Origin: a phage
Strand: one strand, 5' to 3'
Sequence record: PZ386971.1
Length of the DNA stretch: 64,000 nucleotides
Made by a program: the position numbers and the translations under genes. Below are positions 2,733 to 33,332 of the stretch, piece by piece. The notes under the pieces are model-generated. The model was not told the DNA's origin. It made no database searches and saw nothing but the letters and a program-made list of their open reading frames with translations. Numbering within the stretch: position 1 is the stretch's first letter; each line of letters starts with the position of its first letter.

Positions 2733-3182
2733 ATGTTCCTTACATCCTTTATTGACTGGTTGAACATCATTAACGGCCTGAGGATCCCTGTTGGGAACCT
2801 CGGGCTTTCTCGTTCTTCTATGCCGCAAATCGATGCCGACAAACAAGAAGATTTTCACAAATATCTTGAAGACAACGGCGTGTCCATAGATGCTGTGCAA
2901 GTGCCCATCAAAATGCTTCGTCTCACCCAGAACGAAATCAACAAGATGAAGGTCTGGAAGATCATGAAGCAGATCAGAAATAAGAAACCTATGGGTCGAG
3001 TTTGGGTGTCTTCTGACAATTACGTTGTTGACGGTTCTCACCGATTTGTCGCTGCGTTGAACATGGACGGCAAACAGCGCATGAAGGTCTACAAAGTTGA
3101 TTTGCCAGCGATGGAATTTGTTAAACTCGCTAAACAGTTTCAGGGTGTGCGATACAGAACGGTCAGCGATACCCGTTTCTGA
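2733..3182 (+). CDS. ParB-like nuclease domain protein
   Basis: ParB N-terminal-domain motif VVDGSHRFVAA. Confidence 0.55.
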   Translation: MFLTSFIDWLNIINGLRIPVGNLGLSRSSMPQIDADKQEDFHKYLEDNGVSIDAVQVPIKMLRLTQNEINKMKVWKIMKQIRNKKPMGRVWVSSDNYVVDGSHRFVAALNMDGKQRMKVYKVDLPAMEFVKLAKQFQGVRYRTVSDTRF

Positions 3183-3261
3183 ATACGATAGTTTATTGAA
3201 ACCCTTTACTCATCATGGTGAGCCGCCTATCATTTCATCCAATGAAATAAGGAGAATCACC

Positions 3262-3948
3262 ATGAAACGTTTAATCCTCGGGGTCGTGCTGTCTGGTCTG
3301 GCATTACCCGCCGCTGCTAAGCTGAACTCCACAGGTGATAAACTGTGGTCCGACCTTTCCTATTGTGCTGGGTTCTCCCAGGCGGTTGCCATCGACAAGT
3401 CTGGTTCCATAGAGAACTTCGCTGAACTCTGGAACACAGGCAACGTCTCCACTGCTGTCGTCAATGCCGGAATTGAGTTCAACCGTTACAAACAGGGAGC
3501 CTATAACCTCAAGGGCTACCTCAATGACGACGAATTTAACCGTGGAGGCATGGAGGCTGGCGATTTGATCATGACTGGGCGTATGGGCACCCAAGGCCGA
3601 ATGACCGTAAGACAGTGCCGTTCGCTCCCTTCTCCGGCATTACAGAAGGGTGTGCAGGTTGGTCGCCGCCACCTGAACCTCATCAACGATGGCAACCAGT
3701 GCGTCAAAGTATTCGAATACAGCGCTACGCAGACCTCTGATCGCGTCCTGAAGAAGGAATGGCGCACCCGCGCTCTTGGTCTCAGAGCCTGGCTGGTTGA
3801 GAACGATTATTACTTTGAAGACAGGGTTCAGAACGGTCTGAAAGACCTGGCCACGAATCTGAGCGTGAACCTTGATGATCCTCGCATGTCGCGCGAACTC
3901 CAGCAGACTCGTGTTGACTGCGACAATATGATGAAGGAGAACGAGTGA
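3262..3948 (+). CDS. secreted protein with signal peptide (MKRLILGVVLSGLALPAAAK)
   Basis: Track ORF starts at TTG 3097; ATG 3262 has RBS AGGAGAA; signal peptide. Confidence 0.55.
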   Translation: MKRLILGVVLSGLALPAAAKLNSTGDKLWSDLSYCAGFSQAVAIDKSGSIENFAELWNTGNVSTAVVNAGIEFNRYKQGAYNLKGYLNDDEFNRGGMEAGDLIMTGRMGTQGRMTVRQCRSLPSPALQKGVQVGRRHLNLINDGNQCVKVFEYSATQTSDRVLKKEWRTRALGLRAWLVENDYYFEDRVQNGLKDLATNLSVNLDDPRMSRELQQTRVDCDNMMKENE

Positions 3949-14390: not shown

Positions 14391-14716
14391 AAGTCGTCCA
14401 CTTCAAGAAGGAGCCATATGATGTCTACATTGGTCGGCCTGGTAAATGGGGGAACCCGTTTGAGGTCAAAGACCATGGACGAGGCGTCTGTATCGAACTG
14501 TTTGAGGACGACCTGTATGTGCGCCTGATTGAAGGGGATATCACTGAGGATGAACTCCTTGATCTTGACGGGAAGGTATTGGGGTGCTGGTGTAAGCCGC
14601 GCCCCTGCCACGGAGATGTTTACGTCAAAGTCGTCGGGCGTATTAAACTATTCCGCAAGCTGGGCAAATCCTTTACTGAACATCTGAGACAAACGTATGT
14701 CAGAAAACAAAGATGA
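14387..14716 (+). CDS. DUF4326-like protein (GRPGKWGNPF ... CWCKPRPCHGD)
   Basis: Recalled DUF4326 signature motifs. Confidence 0.55.
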   Translation: MKVVHFKKEPYDVYIGRPGKWGNPFEVKDHGRGVCIELFEDDLYVRLIEGDITEDELLDLDGKVLGCWCKPRPCHGDVYVKVVGRIKLFRKLGKSFTEHLRQTYVRKQR

Positions 14717-14981
14717 AATTCAGGAATCCTGTGACATTGCTGTGGAGATATGGAATCGCAGGAATCCTCATTACCAAGTGACCGTCACTCCGAATCGTTA
14801 TCTTGAGCAGGGCGGCCTGATTGTGGTTGATGCTGTACTCGCTTTCAACAAGTACCAAGATATGCAGATCCTGGACGGCAACTTTACCGTCGCGACCAAT
14901 ACGGCATGGGATGACCCTCTACAGTTCGTCTATGGCTGGCTGGAGTGTATCGAGGAATCCTACCACCTCATCTACGAATGA
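14697..14981 (+). CDS. hypothetical protein (94 aa)
   Basis: ATG ORF overlapping upstream gene by 20 nt. Confidence 0.4.
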   Translation: MSENKDEIQESCDIAVEIWNRRNPHYQVTVTPNRYLEQGGLIVVDAVLAFNKYQDMQILDGNFTVATNTAWDDPLQFVYGWLECIEESYHLIYE

Positions 14982-14989
14982 GGCTGAAG

Positions 14990-15021
14990 GGCACTAAATA
15001 CCACGTGCCCTTTATCTTTTA
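14990..15021 (+). terminator. hairpin terminator with TAAATACC in loop
   Basis: GGCAC ... GTGCC stem then CTTTATCTTTT; loop matches late-promoter core. Confidence 0.5.
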
Positions 15022-15080
15022 ACCCCTGTCAGGAGGCTCAAGCGAGCTGCAAGTCGACAAACCACATAAGGAACGCCATC

Positions 15081-15695
15081 ATGACGATGACAACGTTGAA
15101 GGCCATGGCCTTGTCCGTGACCTTTACCATTGCCAGCGGGAATGTGCACGCTTCCCAAAATACAAGTCAATGTGTTTATGATTTCTCTGAGCAACAACTT
15201 AATACGATGGCAACCGCCTATCACGTAGGCAAGACACAAGATCTTGGCTACACTCTGGCCGCCATATCTTGGCGAGAGAGCCGCGCTGGTGAAGATGTAG
15301 TGTCAATGCGATACGGCCTCAAGGCGGCCAACATGGGAGCCTTCCAGAACAAGGTGAAGACAGTTGGTGATCGCGAAGGTTGTAAGAATCGCAAGTGCTA
15401 TGCCAATGTCGCCATAAAGTTGCTGACCGACCAAGAATATGCCGCGCAAGCCGCCCTCGATGAGATACAGTTCTGGCTGACCTATCACAATCAGAATATC
15501 CGCAAATCCCTCTCCTCTTACAATGCTGGCTTCGCCCGTAATCCCGCATCGAACGCTTATGCTGCTGACGTCGTGAAGAAAGCTAAATATCTTCAGAAAT
15601 GTGTGTCTTTCGAAGGCCGGACCATCTCCGAGGTAGATCCTCAGGTGATCGCCATGAACAAGCACACAATAGAGAAACTGAAGAGGACAAGATAA
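15081..15695 (+). CDS. periplasmic lytic transglycosylase (SLT domain) with signal peptide
   Basis: Signal peptide; SLT motifs SWRESRAG, GAFQ, YNAGFAR. Confidence 0.6.
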   Translation: MTMTTLKAMALSVTFTIASGNVHASQNTSQCVYDFSEQQLNTMATAYHVGKTQDLGYTLAAISWRESRAGEDVVSMRYGLKAANMGAFQNKVKTVGDREGCKNRKCYANVAIKLLTDQEYAAQAALDEIQFWLTYHNQNIRKSLSSYNAGFARNPASNAYAADVVKKAKYLQKCVSFEGRTISEVDPQVIAMNKHTIEKLKRTR

Positions 15696-16333
15696 TGAAC
15701 ATCACTCCATCTCAGGCCGGATATGAACATATCTTGGTCTTCATTGCTCTACAGGGTGCGAAGGAAGGCATCATCGTATCCGAGTACTCAGGCACGGTTC
15801 GCCTTGCCGATTATGTCGCACCAGAGGCATTTATCAAGAAGTGTATTGACGCATGGTGCCTCTATGCCCTCGGCACGTATCCTGCTCCTCCTGATGGCGA
15901 GCTGTTGTTTACTGTGCCGACTCCGGCTGCTGGCGATACGGACGCGATCTTTGCCGATATGCTGGCCAAGGGGTATCTGGTGTATGACATCACCCACGAT
16001 GTCTACTCCTTTACTTCGCTGAACACCGTGTTTGGATTCACCATCACATCTGAAGCCAACATCCCTGACTGGGGTATCTTGGCATGGGGTGTTGACGGCC
16101 TGGGTGCAACCTACGCATCGTCTGACGTCGGTGCAGTTCTGATTGATGAGGGTGTCACCATGGAGCAGTACCTTGCCCAGTTCCCTCAGCACAATATCAC
16201 AGGCAGCGACATCATTTTGGTCCAGCCTGGCGCTATCGCTCTCCCCCGTTTGGTGGATGGATGGAATCCTCGGCTGAAGGACATCATCGCAGGTATTCGA
16301 TCCCACATTCCGATTGTGAATCCGACGCCGTAA
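15695..16333 (+). CDS. hypothetical protein translationally coupled to the SLT gene
   Basis: TAATG overlap; internal ATG of track ORF. Confidence 0.45.
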   Translation: MNITPSQAGYEHILVFIALQGAKEGIIVSEYSGTVRLADYVAPEAFIKKCIDAWCLYALGTYPAPPDGELLFTVPTPAAGDTDAIFADMLAKGYLVYDITHDVYSFTSLNTVFGFTITSEANIPDWGILAWGVDGLGATYASSDVGAVLIDEGVTMEQYLAQFPQHNITGSDIILVQPGAIALPRLVDGWNPRLKDIIAGIRSHIPIVNPTP

Positions 16334-16362
16334 AATAATTCAATAAAAGGGGCTTTTGCCCC

Positions 16363-16391
16363 TTTACTTCTTCAATATCCTTCCCTATACT
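16363..16391 (+). promoter_or_regulatory. early promoter TTTACT-N17-TATACT
   Basis: Promoter family member after hairpin AAAGGGGC ... GCCCCTTT. Confidence 0.5.
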
Positions 16392-16439
16392 TCATTCCAT
16401 AAGCAACACAACACCAACTTGAAAAGCAGGAACTACACC

Positions 16440-16715
16440 ATGAAAATTATCCTCGACGCATATATCCGCCACGGTCAGAAATACCTGATGGCCAAGGTTT
16501 ACGACGGCGAAGAATTGATCCACGCCCAGACCGCCCCAGCTGCCCAGCTGCGAGAAATCATGTCACGCGACTTCCCTGGTGTTGAAATGGTAGAGCCTAC
16601 CAACCAGGCCGAAGTAGACAAAGAGTGGGAGCGCGAATGGAGTCCAGCGGCTATCGCTCGGGCTGAAAAGAATTGGTCTAACCGCGAAAACGCAAACCGC
16701 CCTTTCCGCCGTTAA
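16440..16715 (+). CDS. hypothetical early protein (91 aa)
   Basis: ATG after conserved leader AGGAACTACACCATG. Confidence 0.45.
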   Translation: MKIILDAYIRHGQKYLMAKVYDGEELIHAQTAPAAQLREIMSRDFPGVEMVEPTNQAEVDKEWEREWSPAAIARAEKNWSNRENANRPFRR

Positions 16716-16737: not shown

Positions 16738-17073
16738 ATGACACAACTCAAGAACTTCACCGCCGATGACATGTTTGCCTTCCAGGGTGCTGAGCACTTT
16801 GCTGACGGCTCCGTACCTCGCATCTACTACTTCTCCGACGAAGAAATGGAAGATTTCTTCGCCCTGATGGAAAAGGACTACGAACCAGACGACTTCGTTT
16901 ATATCATCCATCACGCCGAAGGACTGACATTGGGCTGGACGGCCAACAATGAACCAGAAGAAGTAAACTTCCCTGAAGGTATCATGTCAGAGCGCGTCGA
17001 ATATCTACTGGAAGCCCTGGACCCCCACACCCTCCCGCTCTGGGCGATGTCTGTAGCCCAAGTTCAAAAATAA
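16738..17073 (+). CDS. acidic small protein (111 aa)
   Basis: ATG after conserved leader AGGAACTATATCATGAC. Confidence 0.45.
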   Translation: MTQLKNFTADDMFAFQGAEHFADGSVPRIYYFSDEEMEDFFALMEKDYEPDDFVYIIHHAEGLTLGWTANNEPEEVNFPEGIMSERVEYLLEALDPHTLPLWAMSVAQVQK

Positions 17074-17148
17074 GATAAGGGGGCTGACGCTCCCTTTTGG
17101 TTTCGCTAATTAGAAGAAACCGCCGTTAATTCAATCAGGAGATATAAA

Positions 17149-20133
17149 ATGTCAAAGCCAAGTTTCCTCCAGTTCATGCAGGAAAGAGATCAGTTGGACG
17201 AAGCGTTCAACTCCGCTCCGTATGAGCTGACCATGGGTAAGAAGAACGCAGGCGATGTGTTCTTCACCTTCGTCGACGAAGATGATAAGGAATACCGCAT
17301 TCAGTTCTATACTCCTCAGGGACTGGGCAAGAGCGTTCGTCAGGTTTTCATCGGCCAGAAGCGCGGCTCCGTCTATCCTGACGCCATCGCTCGCTTCAAG
17401 AACCCAATGCGCGTTATTGCTTCCATGATCGAAGCGACCAAACAATTCATGGCGACTCCTCTGGGCAAAACTATCGATGGCTATGCTGTCAACTTCTCGA
17501 AGAAAGCGCTGGATCGCGGTATGACCCTGATTCCTAAGATCATCCGCCAGTCCGGTCTGAAGCAGAAACTGAATGTCATGGACCTGACCTACGCGCCTGT
17601 CCCTGACCGTGGTTATGTGTGGCTAGTTCGTAAGGGCAAAGATCCGGCTCAGGTATTCGACGGTCCGAAGATGCAGGGTATCACCTGGGATGATCCAGAC
17701 AAGGTCGGTGACGTTCCGGTTCAGAACAATACTCCGGATGTGGGTGTGTCATCTTCTGTTGATAATTCCAACGGATGGAAATTAACTTCAAACGGGGATC
17801 AGCCCATGTTGATATGGGCTGGTAAGGAGAGAGGCCGCACGAATACGGCAAATATCGCTCCCCACTACAATGAGCCGGGCGTGTATGTTGGCGCATACAT
17901 GAATGAGAAACCTGTGCGTGGGCAAAGTGCTGATTTCATTGCTCGTCAGTTGAAATTACCACAAGTCCCTATCAGTATCCTGAATGATTTCACCACGGCG
18001 TCCACAAAATTTTGGAAAGGTTCTCAACAGAAATCTGCGCCTGTTGTGCCGGCAGGTTCGGACAGAAATAACCCAGCCAACATTATCGGTTCTGGAACTG
18101 CTGTTATTGATGCCAAACGGCTTGGTGCTCAGGAAGTAAACGTGGAACGATTCAAAAACGGCGTTCGCATGCGTTCTCGAAACGGTGACGTCGACATCAG
18201 TATTTCTGACCCAGACTTTTCAAATGCAGCAAGTGCGGCTGATGCTGCCACAGCCTCTGTTGTGGTCAAGAACGGGCGTTACGAAGGTGCCATCAATTCA
18301 AAGCGCAAGATTGCCCGCACCTCGAACGAGCAGGGTACTGAATGGGATATTATCGGCGTCAACGGGGAAATCCTTGTCTCTATCAAGTTGAACAAAGTGT
18401 CTAAATCCACATCAGATTCGACCGAGGGTGCAACCAGTGTTGATCAATTACGTGACAGCGGTTTCATCGCTCGTGTTCTGGGTATCATTGATACCAACGT
18501 TGGGCTGGACACTTCTATTCTTCCTGGTGAAAACATCCGTCGCGTGGGCGCTGGTCGTTACACGACGACAGGCGGGTTGGTTATCGTTGTCAACTTCACA
18601 AACGTCCTCGCTGGTTTCGTTCAATACTCAGTTTTCAGCGAAATTGCTGAAGAGGAGAACGTGGCCAAAGGTAGCGCCCGTGACGTCGCCAAGGCGGTAA
18701 TTGCGTCCATCTTTGAGGTTGCTAAGACCCAGTACACTGGCAAATGGGAAATTAGCGCAGTGCCAACAAGCGCTCCATATCCTATCAAAGCCATTCGCCG
18801 TTCTCGGGGCTGGGGTTATGTGGAAACCGCAAACTGGACTCTGACAGTGTCCGACGCTGTCCTGAATCGTGTGAAGCCAGGGAACACTGCTCTGCTGGAA
18901 CTCATCAAAGAGCCTCCGCGTGGCAAGCACCTGCTGGAAATCATCCCAGAGAAGGGCGACAAGACCCTGATGCTGAAAGATCGTATTACCGGGGCCATCT
19001 ATGGTTCTATCGACCTGAATGCCCAAGGCGCTGATCTGGTCAACTCTGGAACCCTGAAGATACCAAGCAACGCCATGGTGTTTGGTGAGACTGTCAACGG
19101 TATGTCCATTCGGTGGGATGTCAATTTCCCCGAAACGGGAAAATACGCCGGTACTTCTATGATAACCAACGTGACCTATTACTACGACAAAGGTAAAGTT
19201 GCATTCACCCCAATTGTCTCTCAGAAAGGGCGTACCCTGAACAATCCGAAGACATATGAACTTCCTTTAAACAAAGATATGGTCCAGAGTGTGATTGATG
19301 AGATTTCATCAAAAATGGTATATCTTTCCAGAAACCTCCAACAGTTGAAAAGTCAGTCATACAACCCAAACCAGGTGTTCTTGAACGATATAACCATCAC
19401 GGATAAAGGTGAAGTGATTTGGAATGATTACAACTTGTCTGACGGCAAAGTTACACAAATTATGCTGTCCATGATAAGCGCAGAAAATAAACGCCTGGAG
19501 AAAGTAGCAAACACGCCGGATATCAATATCACATTGCCCAAGAAACAAGCTGAAGTGGTAGAATTTATAAACCGGATGATCGACATCGATCTCACCCCTT
19601 ATGTGAGAACCCCCAAAAAACGTGATGTGGTATTATTTGACTCTTCTGAATTGTCGATAAACCAACTCAACAACATAGAACGCCTGGGAAGAGAAACAGG
19701 AAAATGGTCTCTTCAGCCAAACGGTGGTATGGGTCATGCACTACTTCTGAAAAGCACGTCGCACAATCCGAAGGACGACCTTGCGGCATACGCCGACTCC
19801 ATTCGCGACAACGCACCAAAAGGTCGCGACCTGGATTGGCAGATCTATGCAAGCCGTGATGGTCAGACTCTGAACGTGGACTGGGATATCACCTTCCGCC
19901 GCAACACAACTGAAGGGGCATATCGCGAGTTCAAAGCTCAGATTGACCGCGCCAACCAGTACCTGCAGACACTGTACCGGGATGCGAAGTCCAAGGGTTA
20001 CAACCCGACTGAACCAAACCTGATGACTCTGGCTCGCGCCCAGCAGTCTGACCAGTGGTCACAAGACAACGGGGAAAGCGCATACAGCGAGTACGAGCAG
20101 TCCCTGGGTGGCAACATGCAGATTAAGATCTGA
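17149..20133 (+). CDS. large hypothetical protein (994 aa)
   Basis: Long uninterrupted ORF; no recognisable catalytic motifs. Confidence 0.6.
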   Translation: MSKPSFLQFMQERDQLDEAFNSAPYELTMGKKNAGDVFFTFVDEDDKEYRIQFYTPQGLGKSVRQVFIGQKRGSVYPDAIARFKNPMRVIASMIEATKQFMATPLGKTIDGYAVNFSKKALDRGMTLIPKIIRQSGLKQKLNVMDLTYAPVPDRGYVWLVRKGKDPAQVFDGPKMQGITWDDPDKVGDVPVQNNTPDVGVSSSVDNSNGWKLTSNGDQPMLIWAGKERGRTNTANIAPHYNEPGVYVGAYMNEKPVRGQSADFIARQLKLPQVPISILNDFTTASTKFWKGSQQKSAPVVPAGSDRNNPANIIGSGTAVIDAKRLGAQEVNVERFKNGVRMRSRNGDVDISISDPDFSNAASAADAATASVVVKNGRYEGAINSKRKIARTSNEQGTEWDIIGVNGEILVSIKLNKVSKSTSDSTEGATSVDQLRDSGFIARVLGIIDTNVGLDTSILPGENIRRVGAGRYTTTGGLVIVVNFTNVLAGFVQYSVFSEIAEEENVAKGSARDVAKAVIASIFEVAKTQYTGKWEISAVPTSAPYPIKAIRRSRGWGYVETANWTLTVSDAVLNRVKPGNTALLELIKEPPRGKHLLEIIPEKGDKTLMLKDRITGAIYGSIDLNAQGADLVNSGTLKIPSNAMVFGETVNGMSIRWDVNFPETGKYAGTSMITNVTYYYDKGKVAFTPIVSQKGRTLNNPKTYELPLNKDMVQSVIDEISSKMVYLSRNLQQLKSQSYNPNQVFLNDITITDKGEVIWNDYNLSDGKVTQIMLSMISAENKRLEKVANTPDINITLPKKQAEVVEFINRMIDIDLTPYVRTPKKRDVVLFDSSELSINQLNNIERLGRETGKWSLQPNGGMGHALLLKSTSHNPKDDLAAYADSIRDNAPKGRDLDWQIYASRDGQTLNVDWDITFRRNTTEGAYREFKAQIDRANQYLQTLYRDAKSKGYNPTEPNLMTLARAQQSDQWSQDNGESAYSEYEQSLGGNMQIKI

Positions 20134-20759: not shown

Positions 20760-20808
20760 AAGGTTGCACTAGACGACGCCACGGCGAAAGAACTTGGTCT
20801 GTAACTGG

Positions 20809-20840
20809 ATCCCCCTAAATACAGGGGGATTTCTTTTTCT
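20809..20840 (+). terminator. rho-independent terminator (ATCCCCCT ... AGGGGGAT + T tract)
   Basis: Perfect stem plus TTTCTTTTTCT. Confidence 0.7.
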
Positions 20841-20852
20841 GAGGACAACATC

Positions 20853-21206
20853 ATGGTCAACGCTAGTATTTTCATCAACCGTGGATTGCTTGCTATAGCC
20901 CACTCTCATGCCTTACACTTCGTTACAACGTCCTATGCCAAGCACAAGGCACTCGGGGAGTTCTACGGGGAACTGGAGGACTTACTAGACACGTTTACCG
21001 AAGCATACATCGGCGCGGGTGGTCAGTATGTTCCATCATTCGAGAATATCAAATTGTACAATCCTGATCCGATATCGTATATCAACAGCGTAATCATCGA
21101 CGTCAATGGGATCTACAATCAATGTGACAGCCATTTACAAAACACGCTTGACGAAATCAAAACTCTGTGCTATCAAACGATTTACAAACTGAAGCAACTG
21201 GCGTAG
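20853..21206 (+). CDS. hypothetical protein (117 aa)
   Basis: ATG ORF with GAGGA RBS. Confidence 0.45.
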   Translation: MVNASIFINRGLLAIAHSHALHFVTTSYAKHKALGEFYGELEDLLDTFTEAYIGAGGQYVPSFENIKLYNPDPISYINSVIIDVNGIYNQCDSHLQNTLDEIKTLCYQTIYKLKQLA

Positions 21207-23219: not shown

Positions 23220-23422
23220 CGTTAGAAGAACTGAACAAACTGGACGACGGAGAGATCTTGCGGGGGTACTTGAAATCTCGTGAGGGATATGTCCTATCTG
23301 GGGAAGAGTCTCCGAGTTTCATCCACGGCTGGAAGAATGGTCAGGCGGACTTCCATGGGGTTCCCATCAGTGATGAGCAGGCCGAATTGGCTCGCGAGTT
23401 TGTAAGATTTCGCCCGAACTAA
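23216..23422 (+). CDS. hypothetical small protein (68 aa)
   Basis: ATGA coupling to primase stop. Confidence 0.4.
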   Translation: MTLEELNKLDDGEILRGYLKSREGYVLSGEESPSFIHGWKNGQADFHGVPISDEQAELAREFVRFRPN

Positions 23423-23450
23423 AACTTTTTAATTCACATTACTTCCCTCC

Positions 23451-23476
23451 AGGCCTCATTCGACGAGGCCTTTTAA
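23451..23476 (+). terminator. hairpin terminator (AGGCCTC ... GAGGCCT TTTAAAA)
   Basis: Stem-loop directly after small ORF. Confidence 0.55.
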
Positions 23477-23516
23477 AATACTTCAAAAATAATTTTAAAA
23501 AATTATTGAAAAAGAC

Positions 23517-23545
23517 TTTACTCTTCAATAATAGCGCACTATTAT
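23517..23545 (+). promoter_or_regulatory. strong early promoter TTTACT-N17-TATTAT with AT-rich UP-like region
   Basis: Promoter family member preceded by 40 nt of A/T. Confidence 0.55.
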
Positions 23546-23617
23546 AATCACATAGGGCGGCAACACACCGCCGAATGAAAAGTGAAACGAACCAACTACA
23601 TTATGAGGAATTACATC

Positions 23618-24106
23618 ATGGCTACTACCAAAACTCTGATCACCAACGGCACCATCTCTTTCGAACTGAACACCGAAGTTGCTAAAGTTGAAATGTTCCG
23701 CATCGCTCAAGCAGCTGGCTTCACTGGTGGCAAAACTTCCTTCATGAACCTGCTGAACGGTAAAGTGAAAGCGACTAACGGCTTCACCCTGGTAGAGCAG
23801 GTTGTGGTTGATAAAGCTGTGGTTGCTAAGACTGCCGACAAAGTTGGTATGCTGAAAAACCTGGGCCACGACATTCACATTGTCGAAGCGAAGACCGAAA
23901 CTTACGGCACCATCGTAGTCGGTAAAGGTCGCATCCAGCTGAACCCACTGAACAACGGTTCCTTCTCTGTGATGGTCTTCCCTAAGAAGGGATACGACAA
24001 CACCGACATCGTGAAAGCTGCTGGCGGCGAAGCAAAAGCTCAGTACGTCAAAATGGGTAAACTGAGCGCCGACGCAGTTGAAGATCTGGTGAGCAAACTG
24101 GCCTAA
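23618..24106 (+). CDS. abundant hypothetical protein (162 aa), highly codon-optimised
   Basis: ATG with GAGGAA RBS; strong promoter; optimal codons. Confidence 0.6.
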   Translation: MATTKTLITNGTISFELNTEVAKVEMFRIAQAAGFTGGKTSFMNLLNGKVKATNGFTLVEQVVVDKAVVAKTADKVGMLKNLGHDIHIVEAKTETYGTIVVGKGRIQLNPLNNGSFSVMVFPKKGYDNTDIVKAAGGEAKAQYVKMGKLSADAVEDLVSKLA

Positions 24107-24251
24107 TCCAGACGTGTAACATAGGGGAGGCAACTCCCCCTATCAGGTCTTGGGAGGAGATCACAGTCATTCAATCCTCTTTGGTGCTCTCTGGGTTGCT
24201 GACACATCCAGAACAAAGTCTCCCCCAGCTCCTCGAGTAGTTCACTTTCAC

Positions 24252-24288: not shown

Positions 24289-25083
24289 ATGGCCATTCTA
24301 AAACTTGGCAACCGTGGCACTGAAGTGAAGGCACTTCAGGATAGCCTCAACAAAATCGGCTTCACCCTCGTCGCTGATGGTATCTTTGGCAAGGCAACAG
24401 AGAACGCCGTCAAGACTGTTCAGGCGGGTGCGGGGCTTGTCATCGATGGTATCGTGGGTCCAAAGACCTCCTATGCTATTCGCAACGCCGGAGACGCCCA
24501 TCAGGATCATCTAACTGAGTCAGACCTGATTGATGCTGCTAACGATCTGGGTGTTGACCTCGCCTCTGTCAAGGCGGTGAATCAGGTTGAGTCGCGCGGC
24601 ACGGGCTTCACCAAGTCAGGTAAGATCAAGACATTATTTGAGCGCCACATCATGTATAAGAAGCTGATGGCGAAGTTCGGACAGGCTCGGGCGAATGCCA
24701 TGGGACATATGTACCCGACGTTGGTCAGTCCTTCCGCAGGCGGGTACACGGGAGGCGACGCGGAGTTGGATCGACTTCATGCGGCCATCAACATCGATGA
24801 GGATTGTGCGTACGAGAGCGCCTCTTACGGTCTCTTCCAGATCATGGGATTCAACTGCCAGGTCTGTGGATACGCCAACGCCAAGGAGATGTTCAACGAC
24901 TTCCTGACAGGAGAACGTGCTCATTTGATGGCATTCGTGAAGTTCATCAAGGCTGACGCCAAGCTCTGGCAGGCTCTGAAGGACAAGAACTGGTCTGAAT
25001 TTGCACGGCGCTATAATGGTCCGGCGTATGCCAAGAACCAGTACGACAAGAAGCTCGCAGCAGCATACAAGAGTTTCAGTTAA
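24289..25083 (+). CDS. endolysin: N-terminal peptidoglycan-binding domain + C-terminal N-acetylmuramidase (DUF3380-like)
   Basis: PG_binding_1-like N-terminus (LKLGNRGTEVKALQ ... DGIFG); C-terminal motifs typical of DUF3380 muramidases. Confidence 0.7.
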   Translation: MAILKLGNRGTEVKALQDSLNKIGFTLVADGIFGKATENAVKTVQAGAGLVIDGIVGPKTSYAIRNAGDAHQDHLTESDLIDAANDLGVDLASVKAVNQVESRGTGFTKSGKIKTLFERHIMYKKLMAKFGQARANAMGHMYPTLVSPSAGGYTGGDAELDRLHAAINIDEDCAYESASYGLFQIMGFNCQVCGYANAKEMFNDFLTGERAHLMAFVKFIKADAKLWQALKDKNWSEFARRYNGPAYAKNQYDKKLAAAYKSFS

Positions 25084-31721: not shown

Positions 31722-33332
31722 TTACTCTTTGGTGCCGAAATTACCACCATTGTCTTTTAATTCTGCCTTGATGTCAATCTCACCCGGACCCGTAGGGGAT
31801 GCAGGGGTTGCACCTGACAGAGAAGAAGCGCGACCAGCACCTTCGGCATATATGATGTTACCATTGATCGTCTGAGCGACAGTCAGTTTGTCAGCGATTA
31901 TCTCAGTCGTTAGAATCTTAGGAACCTTCAATGTCCCACCGACCTCCAGAGTCTCGCAGATAATGCGCAGAATATTCTGCGCTTGCATTTCCGCTAGGTC
32001 ACTGAATTTCATCAGCGCTGTGCCCGCAACCACGTTGGAGTAATTGTTGGAATGCAAATGATAGACCTCACCTGTCTTGCGCTGAACTTCAGTTCCTTTG
32101 ACCGTCAGGTTGTGGTCCCCGCCGACATAATAACGCTTGTTGAACATCGTCAGGTCATAGTGGTCTTTGACGGACTTGTTGACCACATCACCATCCGGCA
32201 ACATTTGCTTGTAAGACCCAGACTTATGCATCCAGTGAAGACGTTCACCACCAGGGGTGTCGTCCACTTCCATAATATGCCCAGCTCGGGACACCATGAC
32301 GTTATTGTACGGGTATTTAGATCCACCCGCAGCCGGAACCATGGTTTCTCCAGTGTTGTCAATATCCTGTACTCGCCCAGTAGGAGCCGGAGTCGGTTGT
32401 TCCTTTGGGGTACGATCTGGGATAGGTTCTGACCATTTACCATTCTGCTGCGCAGGCGCGGCTGTGGCTGTGTTAGCAGGACCAGGCCAACGATATCCCA
32501 AGACCGAAGAACGTCTGAAACGACTGACCTTCACTGAATCGGATTGGTTGCCACCAATACACCAGACATAGTTTGCATCGAACTTCTGCACAAACGCTAC
32601 GTGTCCAAATGTGGGGTTGTTACCACGCCGGAAGACTACGATAGCGCCATATTGTGGTGCTGACAGTGCAGTACCCCATGTAAGGTAAGATCGGGCAAGA
32701 GCGGAGCGTGTAGACGTGTATCCAGCCTGTATCATAACCCAACCCACGAACGCCGCACACCACGACACTTCATCTTCAGAAGCACCAAGGGAGGTTGTCT
32801 TGTGATATTCTATAATGCGCGGGTTGTTGTTGAACTTTCCGGCATACTCCTTGATACCTAATTCGCCACGAGCGATTGTCATCCACTTCTCTGGATCATA
32901 CCCACCAACAGGTGGTTGTGGATCTGGTTGTGGTTCGTCTTCTTGTTTCACAGGAACGTCAGTGACAGCGTTGTACGCCTGACGTTCTACAGATTGAACG
33001 ACCTGCCCGAGAGCCAGTGGGTTTGTGTCGGCGCCATCAGTAGGACTTGAACCAGTCCAAGTCCAGGTGATGCGTAAATTCTGGTATGCTTCGTCAAGGG
33101 CGAACCCCATAACCTCAGTACCAGGAATGATACCCGTTGGAGACCAACCTAAACCAGCAGAGGAGGCGTTAGAAGCAGGCATCAGTACCTTCGCCCACGG
33201 GAGTTTGTCTGTAGGCAGGAGGACGGGATCGTCGGTGTGTACGCCATAGATGCGGACGGCGACGCGCCCGTTTTGGTCTGGATCGTTGACATCTTCAACG
33301 GTGCCGTAAAACCATCTCATATTGTCTAACAT
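31722..33332 (-). CDS. baseplate central spike, gp5-like, with embedded cell-wall hydrolase domain (TIGR02594/CHAP-like)
   Basis: N-terminus RWFYGTVEDVNDPDQNGRVAVRIYGVHTDD matches gp5 OB domain; hydrolase segment; C-terminal beta-helix-like repeats. Confidence 0.7.
   Translation of the reverse strand: MLDNMRWFYGTVEDVNDPDQNGRVAVRIYGVHTDDPVLLPTDKLPWAKVLMPASNASSAGLGWSPTGIIPGTEVMGFALDEAYQNLRITWTWTGSSPTDGADTNPLALGQVVQSVERQAYNAVTDVPVKQEDEPQPDPQPPVGGYDPEKWMTIARGELGIKEYAGKFNNNPRIIEYHKTTSLGASEDEVSWCAAFVGWVMIQAGYTSTRSALARSYLTWGTALSAPQYGAIVVFRRGNNPTFGHVAFVQKFDANYVWCIGGNQSDSVKVSRFRRSSVLGYRWPGPANTATAAPAQQNGKWSEPIPDRTPKEQPTPAPTGRVQDIDNTGETMVPAAGGSKYPYNNVMVSRAGHIMEVDDTPGGERLHWMHKSGSYKQMLPDGDVVNKSVKDHYDLTMFNKRYYVGGDHNLTVKGTEVQRKTGEVYHLHSNNYSNVVAGTALMKFSDLAEMQAQNILRIICETLEVGGTLKVPKILTTEIIADKLTVAQTINGNIIYAEGAGRASSLSGATPASPTGPGEIDIKAELKDNGGNFGTKE

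Follow-up and report, generated by a model that had tools for sequence, protein, structure and literature searches.

A Vs.1-type gene for a lytic-transglycosylase-like protein with a predicted signal peptide is packed with the gene of a DUF7270 virion protein in an Ackermannviridae phage

In a 64 kb stretch of phage DNA (sequence record PZ386971.1, called the window in the following), two plus-strand genes overlap by a single base, and our analyses suggest that this gene pair encodes an accessory murein enzyme together with a virion component. Gene 1 (15081..15695) is an open reading frame (ORF) of the Vs.1 type for a protein resembling family-1 lytic transglycosylases of glycoside hydrolase family 23 (GH23), with a 204-residue precursor and a mature form of about 180 residues, and gene 2 (15695..16333) encodes a 212-residue protein of the family DUF7270. 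We consider it reasonably probable that gene 1 gives rise to a late-made, Sec-exported accessory lytic transglycosylase that would be co-expressed with a virion protein of separate function. We rely for this view on gene order and homology, on the catalytic motifs and the fold, on the conserved features of the signal peptide, and on motif enrichment; from these we infer that the product is exported, cleaved, disulfide-bonded, and catalytically active, that the pair is expressed late, and what its biological role may be. Over the 3.2 kb surrounding the gene pair, identity is 94–98% to Ackermannviridae of the Agtrevirus type (vB_CECAV_050, A221, Ag3) and 80–90% to Limestonevirus and Kuttervirus; by sequence, the source phage is a member of the Ackermannviridae close to Agtrevirus.

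A Vs.1-type enzyme with a predicted export signal

The gene 1 protein matches PHROG 600 (phrog_600) over residues 7–179 with E = 8.4e-59, and T2 Vs.1 matches the window at 15147..15596 in a tblastn search (E = 4e-15; 31% identity over about 165 residues). Relatives were detected by tblastn in 2,132 of 50,697 phage records, about 4% of phage genomes, and they occur in the Tevenvirinae including all T-even types, in Felix O1-like phages, and in phages of Vibrio, Aeromonas, Acinetobacter, and Colwellia. Gene 1 is, by these matches, the Ackermannviridae orthologue of T4 Vs.1, a member of a widespread and already catalogued family whose marginal similarity to SLT enzymes was published in 2006 together with the proposal of "some role in cell lysis" (PMC1524935). 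The first-pass annotation had regarded a periplasm-targeted transglycosylase of this kind as unusual, which is not borne out by such a distribution; secreted transglycosylases of the Vs.1 type appear to be common in sequenced phage genomes, T4 included, where they have no assigned role. With T4 and T2 Vs.1, the gene 1 protein shares the size class, a signal-like N-terminus, and the motifs ES, G-x-F-Q, and YN-x-G, as well as the status of an uncharacterised protein. T-even Vs.1 proteins differ by having no cysteines, whereas the gene 1 protein has four conserved ones. The genetic context is also different, as vs.1 of T-even phages follows regB in a block of early genes and shares an overlap with vs, whereas gene 1 has its own terminator and a late-promoter-like element, a long invariant leader, and the DUF7270 gene downstream.

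Orthologues of gene 1 are often annotated as "RegB", "endoribonuclease", or "site-specific RNA endonuclease" (e.g., MW650886, MG266157, MW021757), and the many records with such labels are what speaks for gene 1 being a site-specific endoribonuclease of the RegB type. We see virtually no chance for this identity, as T2 RegB reached a best E-value of only 0.37 against the gene 1 protein (BLASTP) and of 1.3 against the whole window (tblastn), which rules it out at the level of sequence similarity. In T-even phages, vs.1 is located directly 3' of regB, and one Mosigvirus record has the RegB note placed on the vs.1 coding sequence; the label has therefore probably spread to vs.1 from the neighbouring regB gene, and it is wrong for these genes and should be corrected. 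One paper places the Vs.1-like gene under DNA/RNA processes, and another cites it as shared with T4. In Shigella phage Ag3 (FJ373894), the gene has been annotated in two pieces (orf00114.1 and orf00114, the latter as a truncated "Vs.1"), yet the Ag3 DNA encodes an intact 204-residue protein that is 96% identical to the gene 1 protein of the window.

The enzyme class is indicated by motifs and fold. The three family-1 motifs are present as E66-S67, G86-A-F88-Q89, and S146-Y147-N148-A-G150, and the codons for the catalytic Glu66-Ser67 are found at 15276–15281. In two alignments of 20–33 homologues, G86, S146, Y147, N148, and G150 are invariant, E66, S67, and F88 are conserved to at least 90% in both, and Q89 is conserved to at least 90% in the alignment of 33 sequences. 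The Pfam family SLT (PF01464) was matched by 28 of the 33 homologues (E ≤ 0.01, best 7e-5), and no other family was matched. The AlphaFold model of the gene 1 protein, with a predicted local distance difference test score (pLDDT) of 87, has an all-helical, lysozyme-like GH23 fold, and its top Foldseek matches in the Protein Data Bank (PDB) are all GH23 proteins, namely a Ralstonia GH23 chitinase, MltD, MltE, Slt, Slt70, and EtgA, with probabilities of 0.9–1.0. EtgA is also the best PDB sequence match of the family profile, with all three motifs aligned at a marginal E-value of 0.018. EtgA has an additional acidic residue before the G-x-x-Q motif, and the Vs.1 family has Asn or Ala at this position, which speaks rather for a lytic transglycosylase with a single catalytic acid than for a lysozyme. 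Single-sequence searches of PDB chains gave no match for either gene product, and NCBIfam and PADLOC gave no meaningful matches. The gene 1 product is thus most likely, as far as motifs and predicted fold can tell, a small single-domain GH23 (SLT family 1) murein glycosidase, a lytic transglycosylase with Glu66 as the sole catalytic acid. The SLT-domain assignment of the first-pass annotation therefore stands, and so does its distinction of gene 1 from two other murein hydrolase genes, which are indeed separate: the endolysin gene at 24289..25083, whose product combines PG_binding_1 (murein-binding) and N-acetylmuramidase domains, and the gene for a gp5-like baseplate hub with OB and CHAP hydrolase domains at 31722..33332 on the minus strand.

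Among known systems, EtgA of the type III secretion system of enteropathogenic Escherichia coli (PDB 8urn/4xp8) and its relatives are close to the gene 1 protein, as EtgA is the best profile match with a solved structure and is also among the fold matches. Small lytic transglycosylases of secretion systems are single-domain proteins of about 150–200 residues that are exported to the periplasm by Sec. Gene 1 differs from these in having no known trans-envelope machine as a partner, the adjacent protein being predicted to be cytoplasmic. The housekeeping family-1 enzymes Slt70, MltD, and MltE (Pfam SLT PF01464; GH23) share the fold and the catalytic Glu-Ser motif, and the gene 1 protein differs from them by the lack of a lipobox, of LysM, and of superhelical accessory domains, by a sub-threshold Pfam score, and by being phage-encoded.

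The N-terminus of the gene 1 product has the layout of a signal peptide, with a charged n-region (MTMTTLK), an 11-residue h-region (AMALSVTFTIA), and a c-region (SGNVHA↓SQ) with V at position −3 and A at position −1. The corresponding coding segment comprises codons 1–24 (MTMTTLKAMALSVTFTIASGNVHA; 15081..15152, plus strand), and signal peptidase I is predicted to cleave after Ala24, so that the mature protein would start at Ser25 (SQSTTQCDYEFSDQQL...). The predicted cleavage site is not followed by a lipobox Cys at +1. In the AlphaFold model, residues 1–27 are unstructured with a pLDDT below 50, and the rest is confident. Signal-like N-termini with AXA-type sites are also found in distant homologues, such as those of T2 (…MMAHS↓SE), Felix O1-like phages (…LSYA↓VD), and phages of Aeromonas (…SANA↓V), Vibrio, and Colwellia. 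Four cysteines, at positions 31, 101, 106, and 174, are invariant in the gene 1 proteins of Ackermannviridae. A Cys near the mature N-terminus and another near the C-terminus, spaced by 140–145 residues, recur in four distant subfamilies, including those of Felix O1-like, Vibrio, and Colwellia phages, and the number of cysteines in the predicted mature part is even in every homologue examined. Such paired, even-numbered cysteines suit an oxidising compartment, and the mature protein is probably stabilised by a disulfide Cys31–Cys174, perhaps with a second disulfide Cys101–Cys106. Export of the gene 1 product by Sec and its cleavage by signal peptidase I are thus predictions that are well supported by inference, and the cleavable signal peptide noted in the first-pass annotation is confirmed as a sequence feature by its n-, h-, and c-regions, its VHA↓S site, and its persistence in distant homologues.

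The predicted route resembles that of secreted endolysins and of signal-anchor-release (SAR) endolysins, whose muralytic domains cross the inner membrane via the host Sec system and not through holin holes. In SAR endolysins, the N-terminal segment is a releasable anchor, whereas a cleaved signal is to be expected for gene 1. The SAR type was considered and is ruled out here, as the hydrophobic core has only about 11 residues, too few for an anchor, and has a canonical AXA site behind it. In further contrast to these endolysins, gene 1 does not lie in a lysis cassette, and the endolysin of the phage is a different protein, an N-acetylmuramidase that includes a murein-binding domain.

A virion protein gene in the same unit and a candidate late promoter

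Gene 2 (plus strand) had been introduced in the first-pass annotation as an unknown partner, which needs correction, as its product matches Pfam DUF7270 (PF23934) over residues 1–212 of 212 with 371.6 bits, far above the 27-bit cut-off, and is a virion protein in related phages. In LIMEstone1, mass spectrometry of virions identified the DUF7270 orthologue ORF85 with 4 peptides and 17% coverage, and the authors described ORF78 to ORF85 as a cluster of structural proteins of unknown role; the gene 1 orthologue is absent from their virion list (PMC3296691). In the annotation of Vi01, the DUF7270 protein is a "phage associated protein", and its Vs.1-like neighbour is only a "conserved uncharacterised protein". 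DUF7270 is confined to Ackermannviridae and present in 283 phage records. Among 1.84 billion proteins, it has 8 cluster representatives, all of them DUF7270, and neither remote relatives in this set nor viral fold relatives were found. The N-terminal approximately 90 residues are winged-helix-like, and the C-terminal domain has no known relatives. The protein lacks a signal peptide and membrane segments, and its N-terminus is a well-packed helix in the model; the products of gene 1 and gene 2 therefore probably reach different compartments.

The junction of the two genes is a TAATG sequence (15693..15697, plus strand) in which the stop codon TAA (15693–15695) and the start codon ATG (15695–15697) share one base, exactly as described in the first-pass annotation, and gene 2 has its own Shine-Dalgarno-like AGAGGA at 15682–15687. 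Downstream, a GC-rich hairpin at 16342..16368 (AAAGGGGC-TTTT-GCCCCTTT) closes the two-gene unit, and a factor-independent terminator has been annotated after the homologous DUF7270 gene of LIMEstone1. Upstream of gene 1, a hairpin of the intrinsic-terminator type (14985..15020, plus strand) closes the transcription unit on the nrdA.1 side. It comprises a stem (GGGCAC at 14989–14994 and GTGCCC at 15005–15010), a 10-nt loop TAAATACCAC, and a T-run TTTATCTTTT at 15011–15020, and its 10-bp stem was the dominant element in RNA folding. The stem is kept in Taipeivirus by a change from A-U to G·U, and in Klebsiella phage Magnus a terminator is annotated under the homologous DNA.

As stated in the first-pass annotation, the loop of this upstream hairpin carries TAAATACC (14995..15002, plus strand, inside the hairpin part 14989–15010), a motif that resembles the −10 element of T4-type late promoters. 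The segment cacTAAATAcc agrees with the T4 late consensus TATAAATA at 6 of 8 positions. The core TAAATA occurs 19 times in the window, and 12 of these copies are in the 8.8% of the DNA that is non-coding, an approximately 7-fold enrichment (binomial p ~6e-9, a hand estimate). Most of the non-coding copies are found 24–38 nt before the starts of virion or lysis genes, namely those of the endolysin, the gp5-like protein, baseplate proteins, a 189-residue protein, and a Dps-like protein, with TAAATACC itself recurring ahead of the endolysin and gp5-like genes. Examples of TAAATA positions are 20160, 24254, 33367-, 35702, 39461, 39480-, 60528, and 60550-. The set fits T4-like late promoters with a 5' half that would be looser than in TATAAATA, and the late sigma factor gp55 is encoded in the locus. 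The authors of the LIMEstone1 genome annotated a putative late promoter in the same interval, with printed coordinates about 28 nt upstream of TAAATA. A sigma-70 promoter in the leader was considered and rejected, as the −10 hexamer of the sole candidate overlaps the ATG. From the geometry of T4 late promoters, a transcript from TAAATACC would start about 6 nt 3' of the motif, at approximately 15006–15008, and as it would not contain the 5' arm of the terminator, it should escape termination. Our literature search found no transcriptome or transcript data for Ackermannviridae. Late expression of the pair, which the first-pass annotation had suggested from the loop motif, is plausible on the basis of the TAAATA enrichment in non-coding DNA and of DUF7270 being a virion protein, with the LIMEstone1 annotation pointing in the same direction.

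In the region 20807–20981 of the window, a second terminator hairpin, GGATCCCCC / GGGGGATT, has TAAATAC in its loop, with the TAAATA copy at 20816, and precedes the gene of a Dps/ferritin-like virion protein (20853..21206). Elements of this kind were annotated in LIMEstone1 as putative late promoters. The layout of a putative promoter inside a terminator loop thus appears at least twice in the window.

An invariant segment at the 5' end of gene 1

Between the hairpin and gene 1 lies a leader of about 73 nt (15008..15080, plus strand) with a Shine-Dalgarno sequence AAGGA at 15068–15072, which is nearly invariant across genera. It is 94% identical to Vi01, compared with a window mean of 75%, and about three times longer than the leaders of the other candidate late genes. 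An alignment of five genomes from four genera has hardly any differences in an island at 14990–15159 that takes in the 3' arm of the hairpin, the leader, and the 24 signal-peptide codons, and the segment 15010–15159, with 96.7% identity to Vi01 against the mean of 75%, is among the five best 150-nt segments of the 64 kb. The conservation includes silent positions: third-codon identity is 100% for codons 2–25 and 46% for the rest of gene 1, the largest gap among 58 genes tested, and none of the 23 conserved codons of the signal segment has a synonymous change, against 52% in the rest of the gene (range 43–53%). In the comparison with Miltonvirus, which has no such leader, the signal segment likewise had 0 synonymous changes in 13 codons. 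For the 145-nt segment, 221 of 279 records of Ackermannviridae reach an identity of 95% or more, as opposed to 10 of 278 for the surrounding 3.2 kb. T-even vs.1 genes have only a weak trend towards frozen synonymous sites at the 5' end.

Several explanations for this invariance were considered. An overlapping forward ORF is rejected, as it lacks a start codon and indels disrupt it from one genus to another, and an antisense ORF is rejected as well because of interruptions in Kuttervirus and Taipeivirus. The leader and the signal-codon segment fold no more stably than shuffled sequences (z = +0.75), the terminator hairpin being the only strong element, an Rfam search of 14700–16600 gave chance-level matches only, and repeats of the invariant segment were not found elsewhere in the window. 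The segment after the second loop motif (20832–20981), which includes the beginning of the Dps/ferritin-like gene, is also conserved, with 94.7% identity to Vi01, and late 5' regions may therefore share selection at the nucleotide level or may have been homogenised by recombination. As a tentative idea to which we assign a low probability, the first approximately 145 nt of the presumed late mRNA could be a nucleotide-level control element that acts, for example, as an operator in translation, on RNA stability, or on membrane targeting. It would set the dose or the timing of a transglycosylase that is exported by Sec and independent of the holin, and in this way the phage could pre-weaken or remodel the sacculus late without early lysis. 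We keep this idea because of the invariance in four genera in the face of 43–53% synonymous turnover and because of the approximately threefold longer leader. The invariant 5' segment is a concrete and mutable target for studying post-transcriptional control of a potentially self-toxic enzyme.

How the gene pair may function

We propose that the gene pair is a self-contained unit bounded by the two hairpin terminators. Early and middle transcripts would halt at the upstream hairpin, and gp55-dependent late transcripts would start inside its loop at TAAATACC and read through. The gene 1 precursor would be exported by Sec and cut by signal peptidase I after VHA24, and the periplasmic enzyme would then cut or remodel the host sacculus from outside the inner membrane and independently of the holin, as an accessory murein enzyme and not as the main endolysin. 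The DUF7270 protein would remain in the cytoplasm and be built into virions, and the TAATG overlap would reflect co-expression in one late operon and not a physical partnership. A phage with an endolysin and a tail-tip hydrolase would thus keep a third murein enzyme that is predicted to reach the wall via the host Sec system, and an explanation of Vs.1 would fill a gap in the life cycle of T4-type phages, with lysis priming, spanin access, cell enlargement, and effects on superinfection as candidate roles.

A number of results weigh against this proposal. Our literature search found no functional study or experiment on any member of the Vs.1 family. The match of the gene 1 protein itself to Pfam SLT (E = 6.6e-4, 19.7 bits) is below the gathering score of 21.3 bits, and the Foldseek E-values of its model are weak (5e-3 to 1). 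The signal-peptide assessment is purely rule-based (n-region charge, an h-region of 7–15 residues, small amino acids at positions −3 and −1, and absence of a lipobox), and the disulfide geometry is not readable from the AlphaFold model. With respect to timing, the TAAATA of gene 1 is 80 nt from the ATG, which is atypical in comparison with the 24–38 nt at the other candidate late promoters, the loop motif of Taipeivirus is TAATTATC (TAATTA) and not TAAATA, and Miltonvirus has no hairpin, so that the design with a late promoter in the loop is not universal. In CsCl-purified virions of Sajous1, the Vs.1 orthologue gp211, listed as "RegB", was detected with 31 spectra, and DUF7270 (gp212) was not reported (PMC10892097). 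Finally, the two genes retain their 1-nt overlap even in a genome whose DUF7270 has no more than 38% identity, and a functional link would account for this as well.

The sub-threshold SLT match would likewise suit a periplasmic murein-binding or decoy protein that is not an active enzyme and could, for example, modulate superinfection or lysis from without. Like T4 Spackle, such a protein would occupy the substrate or block the hydrolase of another phage. A periplasmic protein made in an already infected cell, by a phage with its own endolysin and tail hydrolase and without an evident lysis-gene neighbourhood for gene 1, could be understood in this way. We nevertheless regard a decoy as very unlikely, as even very distant homologues retain the catalytic Glu-Ser and the two substrate-binding motifs with little or no variation, which is the pattern expected of an active enzyme, and as there is no similarity to any known inhibitor.

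The Sajous1 data raise the question of whether both products are virion components, in which case the Vs.1-like enzyme would enter virions by packaging, or become attached to them after lysis, and would aid wall penetration at the next infection, and its N-terminus would not serve as an export signal during assembly. The 31 spectra of gp211 exceed the 20 spectra of the tail lysozyme in the same sample (PMC10892097), and the numbering of Sajous1 agrees with GenBank, the molybdate-binding assignment of gp215 corresponding to a weak TOBE match of the 189-residue neighbour in the window. In addition, gene 1 is the first gene in a cluster, and the other genes of this cluster encode virion proteins in LIMEstone1, Vi01, and Sajous1, and a neighbouring 994-residue protein contains a segment resembling internal head proteins. 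However, the Sajous1 sample also held RIIB, glutaredoxin, a lipoprotein, and a membrane protein, and its authors warn of debris (PMC10892097). The gp211 spectra either conflict with a purely periplasmic fate or result from envelope contamination. Presence of the gene 1 product in virions is thus supported in one of three datasets (Sajous1), as it went undetected in LIMEstone1 and is not flagged in Vi01, although DUF7270 was found in both; the papers on PP35, EspM4VN, and phiD3 contain no usable data on either protein. The conserved architecture of a cleavable signal and the paired cysteines fit the periplasm and not a cytoplasmic assembly. T4 Vs.1 is not among the known virion proteins of T4. 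A role as a virion component therefore appears rather unlikely to us, and a periplasmic accessory enzyme remains our preferred interpretation of gene 1.

The first-pass annotation described the two genes as coupled through TAATG, and a functional partnership of their products could be read into this overlap. In such a case, DUF7270 would be an activator, an inhibitor, or a localisation factor of the transglycosylase, and the overlap would set the stoichiometry, comparable to the activation of EtgA by EscI. Adjacency and the 1-nt overlap are indeed kept in eight related genomes from five genera (Agtrevirus, Limestonevirus, Kuttervirus, Taipeivirus, and Miltonvirus), and EtgA, the closest solved relative by profile, was crystallised as a fusion with its activator EscI. 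On the other hand, DUF7270 has neither a signal peptide nor a membrane segment, and most phages with Vs.1 do without it, as about 1,850 more phage records contain a Vs.1 homologue and no DUF7270. Elsewhere, Vs.1 homologues overlap unrelated cytoplasmic genes, namely vs in T2 and the polynucleotide kinase gene in a Felix O1-like phage. Stop/start overlaps are also frequent in the locus itself, where they are found at 6 of 17 gene junctions of the homologous LIMEstone1 region, and gene order is conserved throughout the Ackermannviridae anyway (PMC3296691). We therefore consider a functional pair quite improbable. As overlaps are common, other overlap partners exist, most Vs.1 phages lack DUF7270, and the compartments of the two products probably differ, the overlap would represent ordinary operon packing, with co-expression as the simpler reading.

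Surrounding genes

The gene pair is embedded in a replication and recombination block with the order gp55 late sigma factor, gp47, gp46, nrdA.1, gene pair, virion-protein cluster, and gp61 primase. The phage encodes three murein-cleaving chemistries, namely the CHAP domain, the N-acetylmuramidase, and the SLT-like enzyme, and the gp5-like hub (31722–33332, minus strand) has the CHAP domain (amidase/peptidase) and not the lysozyme domain of T4 gp5. In the cluster 3' of the pair, the ORF for the 994-residue protein (17149..20133) encodes a virion protein in relatives, corresponds to two ORFs in LIMEstone1, and was detected with 196 spectra in Sajous1, and it is residues 796–851 of this protein that match the internal-head-protein-like family phrog_7673. 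The whole cluster may consist of packaged or ejected proteins. Most of the stretch at about 16800–17190 does not align with the Kuttervirus locus. Two further blocks, 2733–3655 and 23416–24110, are 90–98% identical to Vi01, compared with the window mean of 75%, and have high third-position identity, which suggests recent exchange or unusually strong constraint; their genes belong to phrog_2859, phrog_4260, and phrog_3764, which have no assigned function.

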